DNA from: a virus
Taxonomy: Duplodnaviria > Caudoviricetes
Virus record (IMG/VR): IMGVR_UViG_2840526738_000004
Location: 1 to 64,000 of that record
Strand: one strand, 5' to 3'
Length of the DNA stretch: 64,000 bases
The first letter of the stretch is position 1. The number at the start of each line of letters is the position of its first letter. The notes beneath the pieces were generated by a model. It was not told the DNA's origin. It made no database searches and saw nothing but the letters and a program-made list of their open reading frames with translations. Of this stretch, positions 6,953 to 64,000 are shown one piece after another. Both the position numbers and the translations under genes were made by a program.

Positions 6953-7629
6953 TCTGTCTCATGTCGAATACAGATTGTTCTAAACATTCCATTTCTGTGT
7001 ACATATAAAATAAGATATCTTTACATTGCTTTGTACTTTCGTATTCACCTATAACAAATTTTTCTCCATCACGATAAGCATATATGTATGTAAATTCTAT
7101 ACTTACATAATCTACTTCACCAAAGAACATACCGTTTTGACTTAAAACAGTTATTTTCATTTATTTATCCAAAGGCTCCCAGTATGTTTCTTCGATTATG
7201 CGTGTTTTTCTCGTAACTTCATATGGCTGGTCGTGTACAAAACTTTCTTGGTGTTCTGTAAGTCCTTTTCTCCAGTCTAATGCAAAATATCTACCGCCAA
7301 TTTCTAAAATAGTTTGTACATTTTGTGTCCATCTTCCGCTATCTCCTTCTATTTCCTCAAATGTAAAGGTGTATAATATATCCCACAAATCTCCTTCATT
7401 AAACTCATCCCCTGAATCAAATCTTTGTAAAAATTCTTGTTCTGTCATTCTACTTTCCTTTCTTTACCTTTCGTTTCTTTCTATTGATTGCATGTCTACA
7501 AATCTTTCTCACAACCCAAGCTTCCAGCTTATTCAAATGGATGTGTAGTTCATTTTCTAATTGAATATCAGGATTTCTCCTGTAATATTCATATGTAATC
7601 TGTCTTTGTCTTTGTGTTAATGCTCCCAT
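6906..7629 (-). CDS. Three small hypothetical proteins (6906-7160, 7161-7448, and a 59-aa basic ORF at about 7450-7629)
   Basis: ORF track, plus manual translation MGALTQRQRQITYEYYRR...KKGK for the third. Confidence 0.55.
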
Positions 7630-10600
7630 TAATTCTCCTTCCTATACTTTTCCTGAACATATTTTGTTCTATTCAAGTAATCCTCTAATGTTTCAATGCT
7701 TTGTAAACAACCTTTTACTTCTGAGTCTTTCTTTATTCTACATACAACGCACTTACCATTCTTTAGCAAGTCAATATATTGTGTATACTTGTTTGCGAAC
7801 ACTGTAATATCAAATGTAACATTACCAACACCTAGATTGATGAACGCCATTTTTTTACCTTTGTTCTTGCCATTCTTAATTACGTTGGTCTTACAGTTGA
7901 TGATGACTCCACCAACCCAACCTTCTTCTTCAACATTGACCTTATTCCAATCAGGAAGATAAACACCTTCAAATGGATTACCAGATAGGTGTACATTCAG
8001 TACTTCCATTTCCCAATCTAACTCCGTTCCTTGACAGTATTTATCCTTGAATTTACTCCATTCTAGGCGCATTCTATGGTCATTGAATATATGTGTACAA
8101 AGTTCTTTATCGTCTTGCTGTTCAGGTGTAATAAGCCCCATATCGAACAGCTGTTTAATATTAGTCTTGTTAGCCTTTTTGATTGGTTTTTTATCTTCTT
8201 TGCCAGCATTAAATCTTGCAATAAAGTACTGTTGAAATAAGAACATCTTTCCTTTATTGGTTAATGAATCTAACGCACCTGACTTAATCAGAGCAACAAC
8301 GTCACCTTTATTCATTGTAATTGCTGTTGTCATGAAGTCTGTTATAGATACGAATGGTCTATTAGCAAGGATTGTTTTTAAACCATTCTCTGTTAGACCT
8401 TTAATGGAACCTAAACCAATCAGAATTTCATTATTTCTTTGATTAGGTGTATATGACAATCCAGAATTGTTGATATCAGGATTGTTTAATTCAAAACCTA
8501 ATCGCTTTGCTTCTGATAACAATGTTGAGGCTTTATCTGTACCTTCATCCATAATCAGACAAGCGGTAAGATACTCAATAGGATAATGAACTTTCAGATA
8601 TGCGGTAAGATATGACAACAAAGCATACGCTACAGCGTGTCCTCAGGGTCGATTGAAGCAATATTCAGACTGTTTTAATAACAAGTTCCAAATGGCTTCA
8701 ATCTGTTCATCACCCCAATTCCTTTTTCTAAGACCTTCTTCAAACTTAGGTCGTAATGTTCTCATTACATTTTCTTTTTTCTTACCAATTGCTCTACGAC
8801 CAGTTTCTACTTCAACTTCTGGAAAGCCAGCATATCGCAATAATGATAATGCTTGTTCCTGATATAACAATACACAATGAGATTGTTTGAATAATCTCTT
8901 TAAATCTGGATGAATGACTGTTATATCGTATGGATGTAATTTATTGTGACAATAATCTGGGAAGCTGTCCTTAGTACCTGGTCGGTTAGCACTGTTTACA
9001 ACAATAATATCTTCAATGTTGTCTGTCTTAGCTTCAATAAGCATTCTTCTAGCCTCTGCCGACTCCATTTGAAATACGCCTACTGTTTCACCAGTCTTGT
9101 ATACTTCATCATATACTTTTCTATCATTTAAATCTAAATGGTTTATATCAACATCTTCCCATGTAATTCCAGCAAACTTTAATGTCATATCTGCAATTGA
9201 CAAATTCTTTAGCCCAAGTGAGTCCATCTTGATCAGTTTGATATCATCCATTAACGCATGCATTTCAGCTTGGTGCATAATTTCGCCATCTTTGTTGTAA
9301 CAAACAGGACAATATTCTGTTACAGGCTTTGGTGTAACCATGATTGCTGATGCATGACAACCTCTTGACTTAGGAAGTCCTGATAGCTTTAATGCGTATT
9401 CAAACCACATTGGATATTGCTTATACAATTTTTGTAGCTCATCATTACCTTTGATTGCATCCTTTAGCGATACATCTATCTCAATTTCATTTCCATCTTT
9501 ATCAACTTTTTTGATAACAGGAATAGTTTTAGATACAAGGTCACGTAATTCAGGTGTAATCATTCCTTTATATGGACTATCTTCTTTATCGTTTAGAACA
9601 CGCCCTATATCTCTGATTGCAACCTTGTTTGAGAACGTATTGAATGTTGAAATATTACATACATTTTCTTCTCCAAACAAATCTTTCATTACTTGGATCA
9701 TATCTCCACGTTTTAATTTATCAACATCATAATCGAAATCAGCCAGAGTTCCTTTTCTACCGATATTTGCAAACCTACTAAAGTCTAATCCCCAGCGAAC
9801 ACTATCAATTTGCGTTACATTTAACATGAATAAACACAAACAATTAGCTCCACTACCTCTTGAATATCCTAATGGTATCTTTCTTCTTCTGCATTCTTCT
9901 GAAATCATATTCAGCATGATAAGGTAATCAACAAAGTCAAGTTCCTCCAGTACAGGTATTTCCATTTCTATTCTTTCTCTGCGAATTTGCTGTTCTTCCT
10001 CATTCATCCAACCAAACTTTTCGTCAAATGTCTTATAACATAAATACCTTAAATATTCAGTGCTATTCTTATATTCGCTAGGAACCTTGATATGTGGCAT
10101 TTGCGGTTCGTTATCCAACCCAACATCTACTTGTTCACACATATCTACTATCTCTTGTGTGGCTTGCATGCCTTGTTTTATAGCCTTTATAGGTAACTGG
10201 TTACTCAATATATCCAATACATCTTTTTCATTCTGCATGAAGCAATCAGTGTATTGTTCTGATAATTCTCTATCCATGCTCACTTCAACGAACATTGCAT
10301 GAGAGTCAACATCATCTTTTGCTATCATATGCGCATCAGTTGTAATAACATATGGGTAATCATATTCAACAGCAAAGTCATATATCAATTTGTTAGCTTC
10401 TAACTGACTTTGAGTACTATGAGATTGAATTTCACAATACACTTTGTCAAATGTATTGTCTAAATCATCCATATACTCCTCAGCTTCTTCTTCCATACCA
10501 TTTACTAGGTATTTACTCAAACGCCCAGCCTGACATGCTGTTAAACAGATTATTCCTCGACCCCAATCGTTATTTCTAATACGGTTAATATCAATTCTAG

Positions 10601-10952
10601 GTTTTATATATTGACCTTCTGTATTGGCATATGACACGATATCATACAGGTTATGTAAACCAATATTATTTCTTGCAATCAACAATAAGTGATATCTTGT
10701 TTCTTTATATTCCTTTGTATTGTTCTTAAATGTATCGTCATCAACTTCGTAAATTTCACAAGCAGCTAAACATTTAATTCCTTTTTCTCTTGCTAATCTT
10801 TGACTTAAAATAGTAGCTGACATATTTCCATGATCAGAAATGCATACAGCAGACTGACCGTTCTCTACAGCGTAATCTACTATTTGTTCGACTGTAGCAA
10901 TAGAATCTAACAATGAATAGCAACTATGCACATGCAAGTTAGAGAATGCCAT
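7629..10952 (-). CDS. dnaE: DNA polymerase III alpha subunit, interrupted by an in-frame 6-nt CCC-TGA insert at 8643-8648
   Basis: PHP (HVHSCYS), RGSGA and DFDYD catalytic motifs and C-terminal OB fold. Junction reads S-E-Y-C-F-N-R-P-stop-G-H-A-V-A-Y in one frame; both track ORFs are halves of one gene. Confidence 0.93.
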
Positions 10953-11417
10953 TTACTTCCTCACAAAATTAAGTTTATAGCCTGAAAAACCAAAATAATG
11001 ATTATCCAAAACAAACGATACTATTTTAAATCCAAATAATTTATTATTGATTATTTTTGATTTTAACATATGGTATAAATCTTCGCTTATTTCAATCGAG
11101 TATGCTTCTTTTGTAATTCCCCATAACTCACACAATTCATGGAAATTTTTCGTAAACATTTCTATTCCTTCTAAAAAATAATTTTCTGTAAAGCATGTAC
11201 ATACACGCTCACTCTCACCTTGTATCTCAGCAAACAGTCTATCAATCTCAAAACCATTTACTACTTTTACAATTTCTTTGATATTGTCACCCATACCGCA
11301 TTTATGTTCAAATAATGGACACTCACAACAATGATAATCTTTATATTTATTACATATATCTTTTCTTACCTTCAGAAATTCTTCATCAATCAATGTTATT
11401 CCCTTTCCGTTCATCAA
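10953..11417 (-). CDS. Hypothetical protein with Cys-rich N-terminus
   Basis: C..Y..C.ECPL motif; tightly coupled to dnaE. Confidence 0.6.
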   Translation of the reverse strand: MMNGKGITLIDEEFLKVRKDICNKYKDYHCCECPLFEHKCGMGDNIKEIVKVVNGFEIDRLFAEIQGESERVCTCFTENYFLEGIEMFTKNFHELCELWGITKEAYSIEISEDLYHMLKSKIINNKLFGFKIVSFVLDNHYFGFSGYKLNFVRK

Positions 11418-11540: not shown

Positions 11541-12467
11541 CTAAAATAAATCCTTCTTAACTTCTTTTATCTTTTTGATAACTCCATTGTTCAATTTTCT
11601 AAAATCAATAACAGGATTTTTATTTTCCTTTACAAAATTGTATGCTTCTTCTTCAACAAACGTTTTCCAAGCTGTACAAATTAATTTTGGAATCACAACC
11701 TTACGTTCAAGATATGGATTGTCGTTAATGATCTTCTGATATTCCTTTTCGACAAAATCAGAAGTGCAATATTTTTCTACAATATCATTCTCGATTCCAC
11801 CATCAACATTTAAATTACCTGCTTTCGCTTTATTAACAACACTTGCGTGGTTATGGTATTCATCATGCAATACCTTAGCCCAAACTATGTTCCCATATTT
11901 ATTGCGATAATCATAATTTTTAATTACAATTCCTTCTCCATAAGTTCCTTTATCTGGATCAATTAAGAACATATTTGAATTCACAAGTTCTTTAATCTTA
12001 TCTACTGTCAAGTCCTTTCCATCGCCTTCCCAAATATTAGGGATGAATGGAATTCCAAGTGCTGAAAATTCAGGTTGCCATTCTGATGGATGGACATAAG
12101 CAATCTCTCCACTGTCAAATTCAACAACAACGTCAAATACATATGGTTTTTTCCACGCTTCATCTTTATATGTTCTTAATGAATGAGGAACAAGATACTC
12201 CATATACAATCTAGTCCTAGGATTATCAACAAGGAATTGTTTATACTCAGGATGTTGACTGATATAATTAATCAAACCTCTATCATTTTTGGTACCTAAT
12301 TGATATTCCTTATTTCTTCCAGCGATATGTATTTCTCCATCATCACCTAAGAATACAGTTGTATTACAACCATCAATCTTAGGTTGAACTATAACATTTC
12401 CTTCTAGGATACCTTCTGTATCTTGGGTTCCTAGTCTACAAACATGTTGATACTTCTTAAACTCCAT
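11541..12467 (-). CDS. RNA ligase (Rnl2-like nucleotidyltransferase)
   Basis: Motif I QPKIDG, EGIVIK, and AK motif V. Confidence 0.85.
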   Translation of the reverse strand: MEFKKYQHVCRLGTQDTEGILEGNVIVQPKIDGCNTTVFLGDDGEIHIAGRNKEYQLGTKNDRGLINYISQHPEYKQFLVDNPRTRLYMEYLVPHSLRTYKDEAWKKPYVFDVVVEFDSGEIAYVHPSEWQPEFSALGIPFIPNIWEGDGKDLTVDKIKELVNSNMFLIDPDKGTYGEGIVIKNYDYRNKYGNIVWAKVLHDEYHNHASVVNKAKAGNLNVDGGIENDIVEKYCTSDFVEKEYQKIINDNPYLERKVVIPKLICTAWKTFVEEEAYNFVKENKNPVIDFRKLNNGVIKKIKEVKKDLF

Positions 12468-59669: not shown

Positions 59670-62600
59670 ATGGATGATTCCGTAAAAAGACAAATGCACG
59701 TGGGTGTCGGACTTGATGTTACCGATGCCCAAGGTGGATTAGATTCTGTAAAACAGAAAGTAAATGATATAAACAGTTCTATTCAAGAACTCGCAAGAAG
59801 TGCTAGTGAAGCTGAAAAGACTGTCGGTAACTTATCTAAAGGATTAAACAATAGTACTAACAATACATCATCCGCCGATAAAGCTACTAAAGATTTTGTA
59901 AAAACATTAAAGAATGAAGTACTGGCTGGACAAAAAACTGCTACTCAGGCATTCCAAGAGTTAGAAAAAGAAAAACAAAGATTAACTAAGATACTTGAAA
60001 GTGACTCATTTGATAAGAATAAAGATGCTGAAAATTATAAGAGTTTGGTTAGTGAATTAGCTAGTATCAATAAACAATTGAATGCCAGTATGGTAGCTGA
60101 ACAAAAAGCAGCTGAAACACAGAAACGTGCTGAGGTAAAAAAGACTACAGCTGAAATAAAGGCTAATTACAAGGAAATAGAAACAGCTGGTAAACAGTTA
60201 ACAACTAATCTTAACGCCTCATTCAAAGCTGTAAATACTGCTTATGCTTCTAATAACAAACTTGGAAATACAATGTTTAATACAGCTATGCAAGTGTCTG
60301 GTGTTAGACAGTTAGCAAGTGAAATTCAAAATTTAGGAACTGCGCTTGTTGATATTAACTACAACACAATCAATAATCAACGTTTAATGGGAGATTTCTC
60401 TACTTCCCTACGTGATAAGTTGAATGCTAGTGCGGTTGAGATTGCTAAGAATTCTGGAACATTGATTACTGATGCACAACAAATTGAGGGCGCATGGATT
60501 CGTATCAATGACCAGTATGCTAAGTCACCTAAATTGTTATCAGATATTTCAGACACAACATCTAAATTCATGTCTGTAGGTGAAATTACTGATGCTGAAA
60601 GTGCGGTTAAGTTGTTGAATTCTTCCCTACTTCAATTTAATTTAGCTGGTTCTGACGCTGCTAAAAACGCCGAAACTATAGCTAATAAGTTTGCATATAT
60701 GGCTGATAAGACTGCAATGGGAACAGCTGATGAATATGCAGAGTCTATTGCCAAGATGGGCGCTAATATCAGAAACATGAATGGTGACATTGATGATGCC
60801 ATCGTAATGACTTCTATCATTGGTGACAAGCTTGCTAAAAATGGACAAGAGGCTGGCAATGCATTAAATACATTTACAGCTTATATGCAACGTGCCAAGA
60901 CATTGAATCTGTTTGATGATTTGGCTGACCAGTTAGGTGATACTAATATTCGTATTCGTGAAGGCGATAAAGGACTAAAAGACTTTAAAGGTACATTAGA
61001 AGCTATTAGTTCTGCTTACTCACAATTAAAATCTCAGGGTGACCAGCAAGGAATGAATAAGATCATTGAGGCTTTGGGTGCAACACGTCAACGTGCAACT
61101 GCTCAGGCTTTATTGGATGCCATTTCATCTGATGACGGTCAAAACCTTGAATATTATTATCAGTTATTGACACAAGCTACAGCTCAAGGTTCATACTTAG
61201 AACAACAGAATGAAGTATTGATGACATCATTGAAGAAACAATTCAATGTGTTTGTTGCTTCTATTCAAGAGGCTGGCATGGCTTGGGGAAATTCAGGTAT
61301 CCTTGATGGTGCTTCAATATTCCTGAAAGGTATTAATGGAATTGTTGAAGTTATAGGTAAAATACCAGCACCTATTATGAGTGCAGTAAGTGCATTCTTG
61401 GCATTAAAAGGTGGCTTACTTGCATTTGAAAAGATTGGTGACATCACTGGTTTAACTGATAGATTCACTCAGGCAATGAATGGTGGAACTAAAGCTAGTC
61501 GTGATGTTGCAGAAGCTACCGCTAAGACCACTCAGGCGTTCATTTCTGAACAGCAAATGATGTTCTCTAGTGCAAGTGCTAGTGATAAGTTAACAGCTTC
61601 ATATCAAGCGCAATACACTGCTCTGAATGACTTTAAAGCTTCAATGATTGAGCATAACAAAGCATATGCTGAAGGTGCAATATCTGCTGCTGAATATAAT
61701 GCTCGTGTTCAGGAGTCAACAAATGCTTATCGTAATAGTATGCAATATGGACAAATGGCAGCCACTACAGATAGTGAAGTTGCAAATGCTAAGAAACGTG
61801 TTGCATCAGCCATAAAAGAACAGAATGTTGCTGAGAATTTAAGCAATAGAACTAAGAAAGAAAAAATCGGATTGCTTGCTTCTGAGAAAGTTCAGGAAAT
61901 GGCAAACAATGGTTATAGAAAAATAGGAACCGATTCCCAAAAGGCTCGAAATATAGCAGATACGCTTTACAACAAATTACAAAAAGCTCGCCTAATTTTA
62001 ACTGGACAAACTGCAACATCTGAAACTGTTGATACAGCAGCGAAAACTGCTGGAACTGTAGCTACTGGTGTGTTAACAGCTGCTACAACTGCCCTTGGTG
62101 TTGCCTTAAATTTCTTATTATCCCCTATGGTTCTGATCTCAACTGCAATTGCTGGCATATCATGGTTGATGGGACAAAGCTCTGCTAAGACACAAGAATT
62201 ACAAGAAGATATAGATAATCTTACAACTACTGTAAATGAGTCTAGAGAACGTATTGCTGAATTAAAAGACCAGCAACAGCGTTCAGGTTTAAGTGGCTAT
62301 GAAGAACAAGAGTTAGACTATCTGCAAAAGAAAGTAGACCTTGAAGAGCAATCACTTAAAATCAAACAACAGGAAAAGAATGCTGACGATTGGTTCGGTA
62401 ATCATCATACTTTAGGTAATCCTTTTGGTTTAGGTGGTTCTAATAACTTATCAGAAGATGTTAAAGATTCAATTACAGATTTCAAAGAAGCAAAAAACAC
62501 TTTAGAAGATTGGGCAAAATATGCTGATGCAAGCGGTAAATCAATTGAAGAGCTAGGCACTGGTTTAAAAACTGCTACTGAGTATACAGAAGAAATGAAT

Positions 62601-64000
62601 TCCGCTGCTGCTGAATTAGTTCAGTATCGTTCACAATTAGAAGGTGCTATTGATAGTGGCATGTTCAATACAAAAGATACAGAACAAGCAAAAGAATTAT
62701 TAAATACTATTGATGAATTATATCCAGAAATCGAAAAAACAGTTAACTCAACAAAAGATTTAAACGAGGCTACCACTTCAATTGATACAGAAGGATTCAA
62801 AACATTAACTGAGGATTTAAAAAAATCACGCCAACAATTAGAAGGTGTAAATTCAGATATCTTAGAACTGACTAAGGGTAATGTTACAGCTGATTATTTA
62901 TTAGATTTAACTGACAAATATGAAGGTTTTTCTGAGGTTGCCAGTAAATCAACAAAAGAACAGATTGAATTCTTACGTAATTACCAGAGTGAGTTAGAAC
63001 AAACTGTAGCTTCTTCTATTGATTCTAAGATTGATGAATTAAATAAGACCAAGGAAGCCTTAGAAAACAAATTGCAAAGCCTGAAAGACCAGAAACTTGG
63101 AATGGATGACTCAGAGGTTTTAAAAGCAACTGAAAGTTTACGTGAATGCGAGAATGAGTTGCAACAGTTAGAACTTCAAAAAGATATTCAATTGAATATT
63201 AGTTTGAACAATGCATTAGATTTTTCTAGTTTTGTTAATTCAATGGATGAACTTGTTAACTCAACTAAAGATTTAACACAGGCACAATATGACTTGCAGA
63301 ATGGTACAGCTTTAAGCCAGCAAGAATTATGGAACTTATGTCAAACATATCCTGAATTATTGTATCAAGCTAATCTTTTTGCTGATGGTTCAGTAAGCGC
63401 TCAGGAAAGTGCTATCAATGCTGTCCTTGGGATGAAACAGCAAGAGTTCGATTCTACTATTGACCAGAAGATTGCCGAATTACAAGCAGAAAAGACAAAA
63501 CTTGAAAATCAAATTGATATTGAAGGTCAACAGAAACAGATTTTATTAGATTTAGATGCTGATGAAGCCAATGGCAAGATTAATACTGAACAACAGTTAC
63601 AAGATAAATTGACTCAATTCAATAATCTTGAAATGGAGAAATACGCCCAAAAGACCAATGATGAATCTAATATGTCACAAACTGGTGCGCAAAATATGGT
63701 TAATAGCGCAGATCAAGCTAGTTTGAATATATCTAGTATGGCAGTTAGTGTTGGTAACCAGATTATGACTGCTATAGACCAAGGCGCAAGCAGTGGTGCA
63801 AACTCTTTGGCTACAAATGCAAATAGTGGACAAATATCATTATCTGCATTAGCTTCACAGGCTCATGCAACTGCTGAGGCAATTCAAGGTGCATTCCAAG
63901 GTGAAGTTAGAGGTAGTGCCAGTATTCGAGGAATGGTTGATTTTGGTAAAAGTTTAGCTGGTGCCATTAGTCAATCATATAGGTCTATTCAAAACGGATA
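59670..64000 (+). CDS. Tape measure protein (partial, runs off the window; absent from ORF track)
   Basis: ATG at 59670 after AGGAG; frame apparently open to the end, Ala/Glu/Thr-rich with a TP901-like core. Confidence 0.9.
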   Translation, partial: MDDSVKRQMHVGVGLDVTDAQGGLDSVKQKVNDINSSIQELARSASEAEKTVGNLSKGLNNSTNNTSSADKATKDFVKTLKNEVLAGQKTATQAFQELEKEKQRLTKILESDSFDKNKDAENYKSLVSELASINKQLNASMVAEQKAAETQKRAEVKKTTAEIKANYKEIETAGKQLTTNLNASFKAVNTAYASNNKLGNTMFNTAMQVSGVRQLASEIQNLGTALVDINYNTINNQRLMGDFSTSLRDKLNASAVEIAKNSGTLITDAQQIEGAWIRINDQYAKSPKLLSDISDTTSKFMSVGEITDAESAVKLLNSSLLQFNLAGSDAAKNAETIANKFAYMADKTAMGTADEYAESIAKMGANIRNMNGDIDDAIVMTSIIGDKLAKNGQEAGNALNTFTAYMQRAKTLNLFDDLADQLGDTNIRIREGDKGLKDFKGTLEAISSAYSQLKSQGDQQGMNKIIEALGATRQRATAQALLDAISSDDGQNLEYYYQLLTQATAQGSYLEQQNEVLMTSLKKQFNVFVASIQEAGMAWGNSGILDGASIFLKGINGIVEVIGKIPAPIMSAVSAFLALKGGLLAFEKIGDITGLTDRFTQAMNGGTKASRDVAEATAKTTQAFISEQQMMFSSASASDKLTASYQAQYTALNDFKASMIEHNKAYAEGAISAAEYNARVQESTNAYRNSMQYGQMAATTDSEVANAKKRVASAIKEQNVAENLSNRTKKEKIGLLASEKVQEMANNGYRKIGTDSQKARNIADTLYNKLQKARLILTGQTATSETVDTAAKTAGTVATGVLTAATTALGVALNFLLSPMVLISTAIAGISWLMGQSSAKTQELQEDIDNLTTTVNESRERIAELKDQQQRSGLSGYEEQELDYLQKKVDLEEQSLKIKQQEKNADDWFGNHHTLGNPFGLGGSNNLSEDVKDSITDFKEAKNTLEDWAKYADASGKSIEELGTGLKTATEYTEEMNSAAAELVQYRSQLEGAIDSGMFNTKDTEQAKELLNTIDELYPEIEKTVNSTKDLNEATTSIDTEGFKTLTEDLKKSRQQLEGVNSDILELTKGNVTADYLLDLTDKYEGFSEVASKSTKEQIEFLRNYQSELEQTVASSIDSKIDELNKTKEALENKLQSLKDQKLGMDDSEVLKATESLRECENELQQLELQKDIQLNISLNNALDFSSFVNSMDELVNSTKDLTQAQYDLQNGTALSQQELWNLCQTYPELLYQANLFADGSVSAQESAINAVLGMKQQEFDSTIDQKIAELQAEKTKLENQIDIEGQQKQILLDLDADEANGKINTEQQLQDKLTQFNNLEMEKYAQKTNDESNMSQTGAQNMVNSADQASLNISSMAVSVGNQIMTAIDQGASSGANSLATNANSGQISLSALASQAHATAEAIQGAFQGEVRGSASIRGMVDFGKSLAGAISQSYRSIQNG

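Follow-up and report, generated by a model that had tools for sequence, protein, structure and literature searches.

This study concerns dnaE, the gene of the DNA polymerase III alpha subunit (Pol III alpha), in a stretch of 64,000 nucleotides (nt) that makes up positions 1 to 64,000 of the Caudoviricetes record IMGVR_UViG_2840526738_000004 and is referred to here as the window. The gene occupies a single minus-strand frame (10952-7629) that is open throughout apart from one in-frame TGA. The PHP, Pol III alpha and fingers domains (Pfam) are encoded 5' of this stop, and the HHH_6 and OB domains 3' of it. Across the site the minus strand reads TAT TGC TTC AAT CGA CCC TGA GGA CAC GCT GTA GCG TAT, and re-reading of the sequence together with the alignment of intact relatives bears out the preliminary description of this DNA, in which the fingers motif was said to be broken in frame by the 6 nt CCC TGA. 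The interrupted gene is the sole Pol III alpha gene of the whole 76-kb record. CCC is the rarest proline codon (19 of 485) and accounts for 19 of all 22,439 codons (0.085%). Since TGA closes 17 of the 94 open reading frames (ORFs), the genetic code is standard, and a genome-wide reassignment of TGA (code 4) is ruled out on the same count; TAG likewise serves as an ordinary stop in the genome, and tRNA genes, suppressors included, were found neither in the window nor in the rest of the 76-kb record. As developed below, the gap is probably crossed by a short ribosomal hop, from a take-off codon to a landing triplet just ahead of the codon at which decoding would resume (Table 1).

Table 1. Features of the interrupted dnaE gene and its surroundings (window positions unless a relative's locus is named)
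Feature	Position	Strand	Basis or remark
dnaE part 1, 769 codons + TGA; PHP, Pol III alpha, fingers; ends ...YCFNR-P-stop	8643..10952	-	exact product on 12 contigs
dnaE part 2, 337 codons + TAA; rest of fingers, HHH_6, OB	7629..8642	-	dN/dS 0.03 at dS 0.33
Proposed take-off codon CGA, Arg768 (Arg of FNR)	8649..8651	-	only CGA or CGC among gap alleles
6-nt coding gap CCCTGA	8643..8648	-	extra relative to intact relatives
CCC, rare "hungry" codon, proposed A-site occupant	8646..8648	-	codon counts
TGA, proposed tRNA-Arg landing triplet, G-U at first position	8643..8645	-	gap-family comparison
Resume codon GGA, Gly of GHAVAY	8640..8642	-	GHAVAY invariant in 12 gap alleles
5' hairpin, 53 nt, 3' arm ending on the take-off codon	8651..8703	-	consensus fold, gap alleles
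Basal 9-bp stem of the 5' hairpin, GAUUGAAGC paired with GCUUCAAUC	8703-8695 / 8659-8651	-	C of the take-off codon takes part in the last pair
Inner helices of the 5' hairpin	8691-8687 / 8669-8665 and 8684-8680 / 8674-8670	-	two compensatory pairs
Shine-Dalgarno-like run UGGGGUGAUGA, codons W-G-D-E, 5 nt upstream of the hairpin	8707..8717	-	predicted 16S duplex
3' hairpin ACGCU-GU-AGCGU of the preliminary description	8627..8638	-	folds; lineage-local, outside the conserved signal
154-amino-acid ORF between RNA ligase gene and dnaE	10953-11417		without homing-endonuclease-type Pfam domain
RNA ligase gene (PF09414), upstream of dnaE, probably unrelated to the gap	11541..12467	-	Pfam
Homing-endonuclease-like free-standing ORFs abutting or overlapping the dnaE start in relatives	L004:4492-5001; L171:3247-4011; L170:3286-3981; L181:1209-2183		

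The gap is a genuine and recurrent feature of this gene. In the nearest annotated relative, Clostridium phage Amboise (72% amino-acid identity; host [Clostridium] innocuum), dnaE is uninterrupted (SEYCFNRGHAVAY) and its junction reads TTT AAC AGA GGT CAT, relative to which the window carries exactly 6 extra bases. A 99% relative on an assembled contig (L005) shows AAT CGT GGA CAC without a gap, the window again being 6 bases longer, and FNRGHAVAY is uninterrupted in both. Among Logan contigs, which cover the stretch in part, one from run X2 spans the junction and is identical to the window, and one from run X4 is a 93% relative that is without exactly these 6 bases. The exact 769-amino-acid product was retrieved on 12 contigs, and 2 further contigs carry a 97% variant; they come from different ENA and Logan samples and in every case have CCCTGA, which places the allele on at least 14 contigs from independent samples. 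Comparison of the window with a second CCCTGA-bearing locus (L178) gives a ratio of nonsynonymous to synonymous substitution rates (dN/dS) of 0.05 in the N-half and of 0.03 in the C-half (dN 0.010, dS 0.333), the gap itself being unchanged. The CCCTGA allele is neither an artefact nor a decaying gene; it is real and old.

The window allele belongs to a family of gaps at one and the same codon boundary. Protein searches returned dozens of clusters of 767-770 amino acids, 60-74% identical to the window product, that end in ...YCFNR-stop. Within a set of 130 homologue clusters, 47 end exactly in FN[RK]-stop, 2 end in FNRP-stop and 63 are contiguous; a sense-codon insertion at the boundary occurs neither in these 130 clusters (63 contiguous) nor in 140 intact loci. 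At the N-terminal PHP motif no comparable gap was seen: a motif test placed that motif inside the main ORF in 157 of 171 loci, 10 more begin with MYSSLHMHT, a form that escapes the test, and 4 are interrupted in other ways. At the DNA level, 12 distinct interrupted alleles define 9 gap types, written here as codon before the gap, gap and codon after it. Those of 6 nt are CGA-CCCTGA-GGA (the window), CGA-TAGCGA-GGY, CGC-TGACGA-GGN, CGA-TAGCGG-GGC and CGA-TAGCGT-GGT; those of 7 nt are CGC-TGACCGA-GGC, CGC-TGACTGT-GGA, CGC-TGAATGT-GGA and CGA-TAGATGT-GGT, and in these four the C-half lies in the +1 frame. In a tree of the N-half the gap alleles fall into two well-separated clades that share only about 55% identity. 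Each clade has long internal branches and sister lineages that are intact, and gaps of 6 and of 7 nt are present in both. The codon before the gap is CGA or CGC only, as compared to a spread of CGG (52), CGT (44), CGA (21), AGA (19) and CGC (3) at the same position in intact alleles. It is followed by UAG or UGA in 8 of the 9 types and by CCC in the window. In 5 types the triplet immediately before GGN is CGA, CGT or CGG; in the other 4, the window among them, it is UGU or UGA and would pair G-U at the first position. Trinucleotides of the form YGN account for 8-9% of those in the genome. As a separate observation, in both clades TAG (in the window, CCC) invariably follows CGA and TGA invariably follows CGC, which could reflect the shared ancestry of two cassette lineages (see below) or else a context effect.

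Downstream of the gap, the C-halves remain open for 302-343 codons in all gap alleles, the one of 302 codons (L181) reaching the end of its contig. The first 25 codons after the gap are under strong purifying selection; they include GHAVAY, which is invariant in the 12 gap alleles and is encoded with 2-4 synonymous codons per position. It follows that GGN, in that frame, is where translation has to enter. Between the last stop and GGN the gap alleles contain no ATG, GTG or TTG, in agreement with the earlier remark that no credible separate start would retain GHAVAY; the starts chosen by gene callers for the C-part vary by allele, and the first in-frame ATG, GTG or TTG is up to about 50 codons downstream.

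These observations are best read as a programmed hop of 6-7 nt by peptidyl-tRNA-Arg, which we hold to be probable. According to the proposed mechanism, a ribosome would pause with CGA (Arg768) in the peptidyl (P) site and the very rare CCC, or UAG/UGA in relatives, in the aminoacyl (A) site. Peptidyl-tRNA-Arg would then uncouple, the mRNA would slide by 6 nt, or by 7 nt in certain relatives, and that same tRNA would re-pair with the triplet just before GGN, that is, UGA here and CGA, CGG, CGT or UGU elsewhere. Decoding would resume at GGA to give full-length Pol III alpha with the canonical FNRGHAVAY, and ribosomes failing to hop would release the 769-amino-acid N-fragment. The 53-nt 5' hairpin and the Shine-Dalgarno-like run just 5' of it are likely stimulators, and the hairpin, on folding again behind the ribosome, could propel the slide forward or act on it as a ratchet. 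The arrangement of the site accords with such a process. Take-off and landing are readable by one peptidyl-tRNA and the landing triplet sits directly 5' of the resume codon; a slow A-site codon, either a stop or a hungry codon, adjoins the take-off codon; the downstream ORF is under selection in the resume frame and has no start of its own; and a conserved candidate for a stimulatory signal is present in the gap-specific 5' hairpin. Gaps of 6 and of 7 nt are found side by side in each clade and call for a single mechanism, and only a hop would restore FNRGH in all gap alleles of both lengths. The motif FN(K/R)(S/G)H aligns gap-free to the Pol III alpha structures of Taq, E. coli and M. tuberculosis. 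The preliminary description had suggested the movement from CGA to UGA with resumption at GGA for the window allele, and this suggestion gains support from the 8 further gap types with CGA or CGC as take-off and CGN, UGU or UGA as landing.

The sequence 5' of the gap distinguishes interrupted from intact alleles. In the 8 gap alleles folded, the 5' hairpin forms with 9 of 9 basal pairs at -18 to -21.5 kcal/mol, compared to a mean of 4.9 basal pairs and a mean of -8.9 kcal/mol in 56 intact alleles, among which L005 is the only one with all 9 basal pairs. The basal stem is invariant even at synonymous sites and complete in all 12 distinct gap alleles; 96.9% of the hairpin cells are paired, as against 15-50% when the partners are slid. 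The Shine-Dalgarno-like run has the consensus UGGGG(U/G)GAUGA in gap alleles, and its predicted duplex with the 3' end of 16S ribosomal RNA amounts to -13.5 to -17.7 kcal/mol in 11 gap alleles, compared to a mean of -7.2 kcal/mol in 41 intact ones; its GGT is replaced by AAT in L005 and in the X4 contig, both of them near relatives without the gap. The encoded peptide is conserved as well. Even where gap alleles share 50-60% identity overall, they agree at 94-100% over the 18 residues that precede the gap, whereas the same residues in pairs of intact alleles at equal divergence are on average 49% and at most 72% identical. Nucleotide identity between the two clades is 83-96% over positions -75 to 0, except in the hairpin loop, where it falls to 71%, and is 60-75% further upstream. 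The sequences show how the site is built, that it recurs, that both halves are under purifying selection and that a start codon is lacking; the hop, its efficiency and any part played in it by the hairpin, the Shine-Dalgarno-like run or the peptide are inferred. The small hairpin that the preliminary description had placed just 3' of the stop can indeed form with 4-5 base pairs (bp) in the window; it is not conserved, with 2 bp left in the consensus fold. Mini-hairpins across the gap comprise 3 bp only, and the long-range pairs 11-17/107-113 of the consensus fold were treated as spurious.

Several points weigh against the hop. The support for it is comparative throughout, the pairing arguments being drawn from the phage sequence. 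The window allele is an atypical member of its family, the take-off codon being followed by the sense codon CCC instead of a stop; normal decoding would for that reason compete with the hop, and since CCC replaces the stop, readthrough of the UGA is harder to exclude for the window than for the family. The landing triplet of the window, UGA, is the same triplet that would be passed over at +3 in the TGA-led relatives. Landings on UGA and UGU involve a G-U first pair, and the wobble position of a CGG landing misfits an ICG anticodon. Some intact alleles also carry a Shine-Dalgarno-like run, with predicted duplexes reaching -13.3 kcal/mol, and the roles of the conserved peptide and of the hairpin RNA encoding it are inseparable. 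Synthetic stop-hops in E. coli are inefficient, at about 1%, and strong stimulation must therefore be assumed if an essential replicase is to be made in this way.

The explanation that competes most seriously, though we judge it unlikely, is that the gap is translated as an insertion of two residues. Readthrough of UGA would produce FNR-P-(W or other)-GH in the window, and a +1 shift at the stop would produce FNR-D/E/R-R/C-GH in the relatives with 7-nt gaps. It would fit that the window gap is in frame, that UGA is the leakiest of the stop codons and that all gaps measure 6 or 7 nt, hence two codons or two codons and one base. A single mechanism for the whole family is not obtained in this way, however: the 4 types of 7 nt shift the frame, TGA and TAG are ordinary stops, and close relatives would need two mechanisms and would have to switch between them. 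Frameshifting of the RF2 or antizyme type is not indicated, given that the change from CGC to GCU, or from CGA to GAU, offers no re-pairing in the +1 frame and that the 6-nt alleles require no shift. The pairs of residues to be inserted (X-R, D-R, D-C, E-C, R-C, P-X) are unrelated to each other, and an insertion made of sense codons alone is found in none of the 63 contiguous clusters or 140 intact loci. Added to this, the motif is free of gaps in the solved structures, the phage is without a suppressor tRNA, and the constant CGN, UGU or UGA before GGN would be left unexplained.

Less probable still is a naturally split DnaE, in which the 769-amino-acid N-fragment and a separately initiated C-fragment would assemble non-covalently. 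Phages with split polymerases or split topoisomerase subunits are known, and gene callers annotate two ORFs in every case. Against this stand the missing canonical start between stop and GGN and the variable position of the first starts further downstream; no conserved start is present for a second part. The first 25 codons, GHAVAY included, are nonetheless under strong purifying selection, and in a split gene the 5' hairpin and the match of take-off and landing triplets would have no role.

Removal of the gap at the level of RNA appears very improbable. The 6-7 nt would be cut from the mRNA by a hairpin-recognising nuclease and the ends rejoined by the Rnl2-like ligase, whose gene the preliminary description had brought into connection with an excised micro-insert. 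The gene is present as described, just upstream and one ORF away from dnaE; the gap-less 99% relative L005 is without it; and the conserved hairpin abuts the site. The distribution of the ligase speaks against mRNA repair: no RNA_ligase is listed within 2.5-5 kb on either side of the gap-bearing dnaE in L004, L169, L170, L171, L173, L180, L182 and L186, yet ligase and kinase are both present in the gap-less Amboise. Neither the stop or rare codon nor the Arg-like landing triplet would be predicted from RNA removal, and we know of no micro-splicing of such size. In the window, the ligase gene that L005 is without lies between a NUDIX gene and a 47-amino-acid ORF. Most remote of all is a defective allele or assembly artefact, a natural suspicion for a stop codon in an essential motif of a metagenome-assembled sequence and one that the preliminary description had itself raised (assembly error, private insert or drifting dnaE), which is contradicted by the same allele in independent assemblies and studies, strong purifying selection on both halves in the CCCTGA lineage, 8 other gap types with the same accessory elements and the status of the interrupted gene as the record's only Pol III alpha.

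The proposed dnaE hop can be placed among the few examples of natural programmed bypassing, namely the T4 gene 60 family, the candidate terminase of phage Hau3 and the byps elements of yeast mitochondria. Like the T4 gene 60/MobA cassette, the dnaE gap would be an untranslated insert that interrupts a strongly conserved motif in an essential gene of phage replication, with take-off and landing codons that match, or wobble-match, for one peptidyl-tRNA. In the gene 60 family, the take-off codon is followed by a stop or by a hungry codon of 0.08% usage and the landing may be a wobble match, re-pairing taking place in the P site where pairing goes unmonitored (bioRxiv 10.1101/2022.08.31.505936; PMC5009743). 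The A site of the dnaE alleles resembles this closely, being a stop or, in the window, CCC at 0.085%, as in some gene 60 clades with their codon of about 0.08%. Further similarities are the conserved upstream sequence and the patchy, cassette-like spread in diverged hosts at a site targeted by homing. The differences are equally clear. The gap measures 6-7 nt here and 50 nt in gene 60, which leaves no room for a take-off stem-loop or a mini-Shine-Dalgarno within it; the tRNA would be that of Arg, not of Gly or Asp; a strong 5' hairpin is conserved here, while conservation of the 5' stem-loop is lacking in the gene 60 family. The dnaE gap neither contains nor adjoins an endonuclease gene, sequence homology is absent, and the dnaE case is built from sequence comparison. 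The site is thus without the in-gap stem-loop, the mini-Shine-Dalgarno and the linked homing endonuclease gene of the gene 60/MobA type.

The CGA-UAG-CGA-GGN of the relatives has exactly the layout of the synthetic stop hops in E. coli, in which nine nt are decoded as one amino acid (Weiss et al. 1987, as cited in PMC5009743 and PMC10732093); the synthetic hops are artificial and of low efficiency, whereas the dnaE arrangement is natural, conserved and equipped with candidate stimulators. A natural in-frame stop hop was not known to the 2016 recoding review (PMC5009743), and our literature searches found no report of a hop in dnaE. The closest short-gap candidate is the terminase of Streptomyces phage Hau3 with its insert of 10 nt (PMC10732093), where an essential phage gene likewise has a short gap with a rare A-site codon, and where a stem-loop with a flanking Shine-Dalgarno has been proposed to act as 5' stimulator. 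That bypass has partial experimental support and is proposed to be regulatory (PMC10732093). It differs from the dnaE case in gene, host phylum and trigger, the latter being UUA, read by the developmentally regulated bldA tRNA. The byps elements of Magnusiomyces capitatus (PMC5009743) differ in being mitochondrial, 27-55 nt long, GC-rich, mobile, inserted at many sites and largely independent of context.

The codon boundary of the gaps is also a hot spot for homing elements. An ORF-less insertion of about 213 nt occurs after GGT, 3 nt downstream of the gap site (L067:6319-6531); it matches the full-length group I intron model at E=2e-4, below the Rfam gathering score, and is probably a group I intron. 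At the gathering threshold, Rfam returned nothing on the intron-bearing loci. Another insertion, of about 1.06 kb, occurs after GGN CAT, 6 nt downstream of the gap site, and carries an ORF of 216-268 amino acids (L019:6311-7366; L055), which in L055 shows a LAGLIDADG-like motif. Both insertions are sporadic among near-identical intact alleles. A Logan protein of 968 amino acids (P0112) is a DnaE with an intein (HNH, Intein_splicing) at FNR|CLTGDT, precisely the boundary of the gaps. The window insert itself is of another order than a group I intron (at least 200 nt) or an intein (at least 130 amino acids), having 6 nt and no Rfam match; the sole Rfam match in the window dnaE region was a snoRNA, judged to be due to chance. 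ORFs with HNH_3+AP2, AP2 or LAGLIDADG_2 are found directly upstream of dnaE in 4 of about 10 lineages, at 2.3 kb from the gap. The bypass insert of gene 60 blocks cleavage by MobA (Manning & Atkins, bioRxiv 10.1101/2022.08.31.505936), and by analogy the dnaE gap may protect its site from local intron or intein endonucleases.

Taken further, and only tentatively, the evidence might be joined into the picture of a mobile "hop cassette" that combines a first natural stop-hop with protection of an endonuclease site and, possibly, the setting of a ratio between truncated and full-length product. The gap and the 70-nt block upstream of it (Shine-Dalgarno-like run, 53-nt hairpin, Arg-stop-Arg) would then form a self-contained unit that has moved between phage dnaE genes only about 55% identical. 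It would persist because an insertion of 6-7 bp makes the FNRGH site unrecognisable to the homing endonucleases of introns and inteins. It may, in addition, fix the proportion of a truncated Pol III alpha without clamp binding to the full-length enzyme, much as frameshifting in dnaX sets the ratio of gamma to tau.

A hop in dnaE, if true, would be the first natural stop-hop described. In the replicase of gut Firmicutes phages, the site provides a small and widely distributed system with variation already supplied by nature. With nine gap types, two lengths and a sharp 5' hairpin, it is well suited for tests of slide distance, landing choice and the driving of the slide by mRNA re-folding. Homing introns and inteins insert no more than 6 nt from the same position, and the site thereby also ties recoding to an arms race with these elements. 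For genome annotation the consequence is immediate, in that pipelines call these polymerases two genes or pseudogenes and 47 of 130 homologue clusters are affected.

The gap family was found almost exclusively in ENA and Logan assemblies. A megablast search of the window dnaE against the phage collection gave no match, nor did a degenerate gapped pattern (gaps of 1-15 nt) in IMG/VR; a 20-mer exon probe in IMG/VR gave three matches, all to unrelated genes. A single-protein scan of the GTDB representative genomes found nothing, in a profile scan of them the only alleles were intact or intron-bearing ones from Lachnospiraceae, Roseburia and Acetatifactor, and no gap-bearing isolate came to light in these scans. 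We infer the host only from the Amboise record ([Clostridium] innocuum) and from a related protein annotated in [Eubacterium] hominis.

That protein belongs to a second type of interruption. In L005 (3022-7115 of the contig from ENA ERZ27267998), dnaE is split at the catalytic ...ADFDYD by an ORF of 170 amino acids with NUMOD4 and HNH_3, an arrangement resembling that of an intron that carries a homing endonuclease. The corresponding N-part of 451 amino acids was found on 22 contigs, and a 451-amino-acid variant of the same cluster is the one annotated in [Eubacterium] hominis. Regarding the genome as a whole, the 76.2-kb record is 52% complete according to CheckV; it may be nearly whole, since the complete genome of the related phage Amboise has 77.3 kb. 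Contigs of 100-158 kb also carry relatives of the same dnaE clade. Where the structural arm ends, the plus strand bears two giant ORFs of 1971 and 2580 amino acids (genome positions 59670-65585 and 66452-74194), the first of which occupies 59670-63998 of the window and runs beyond it.

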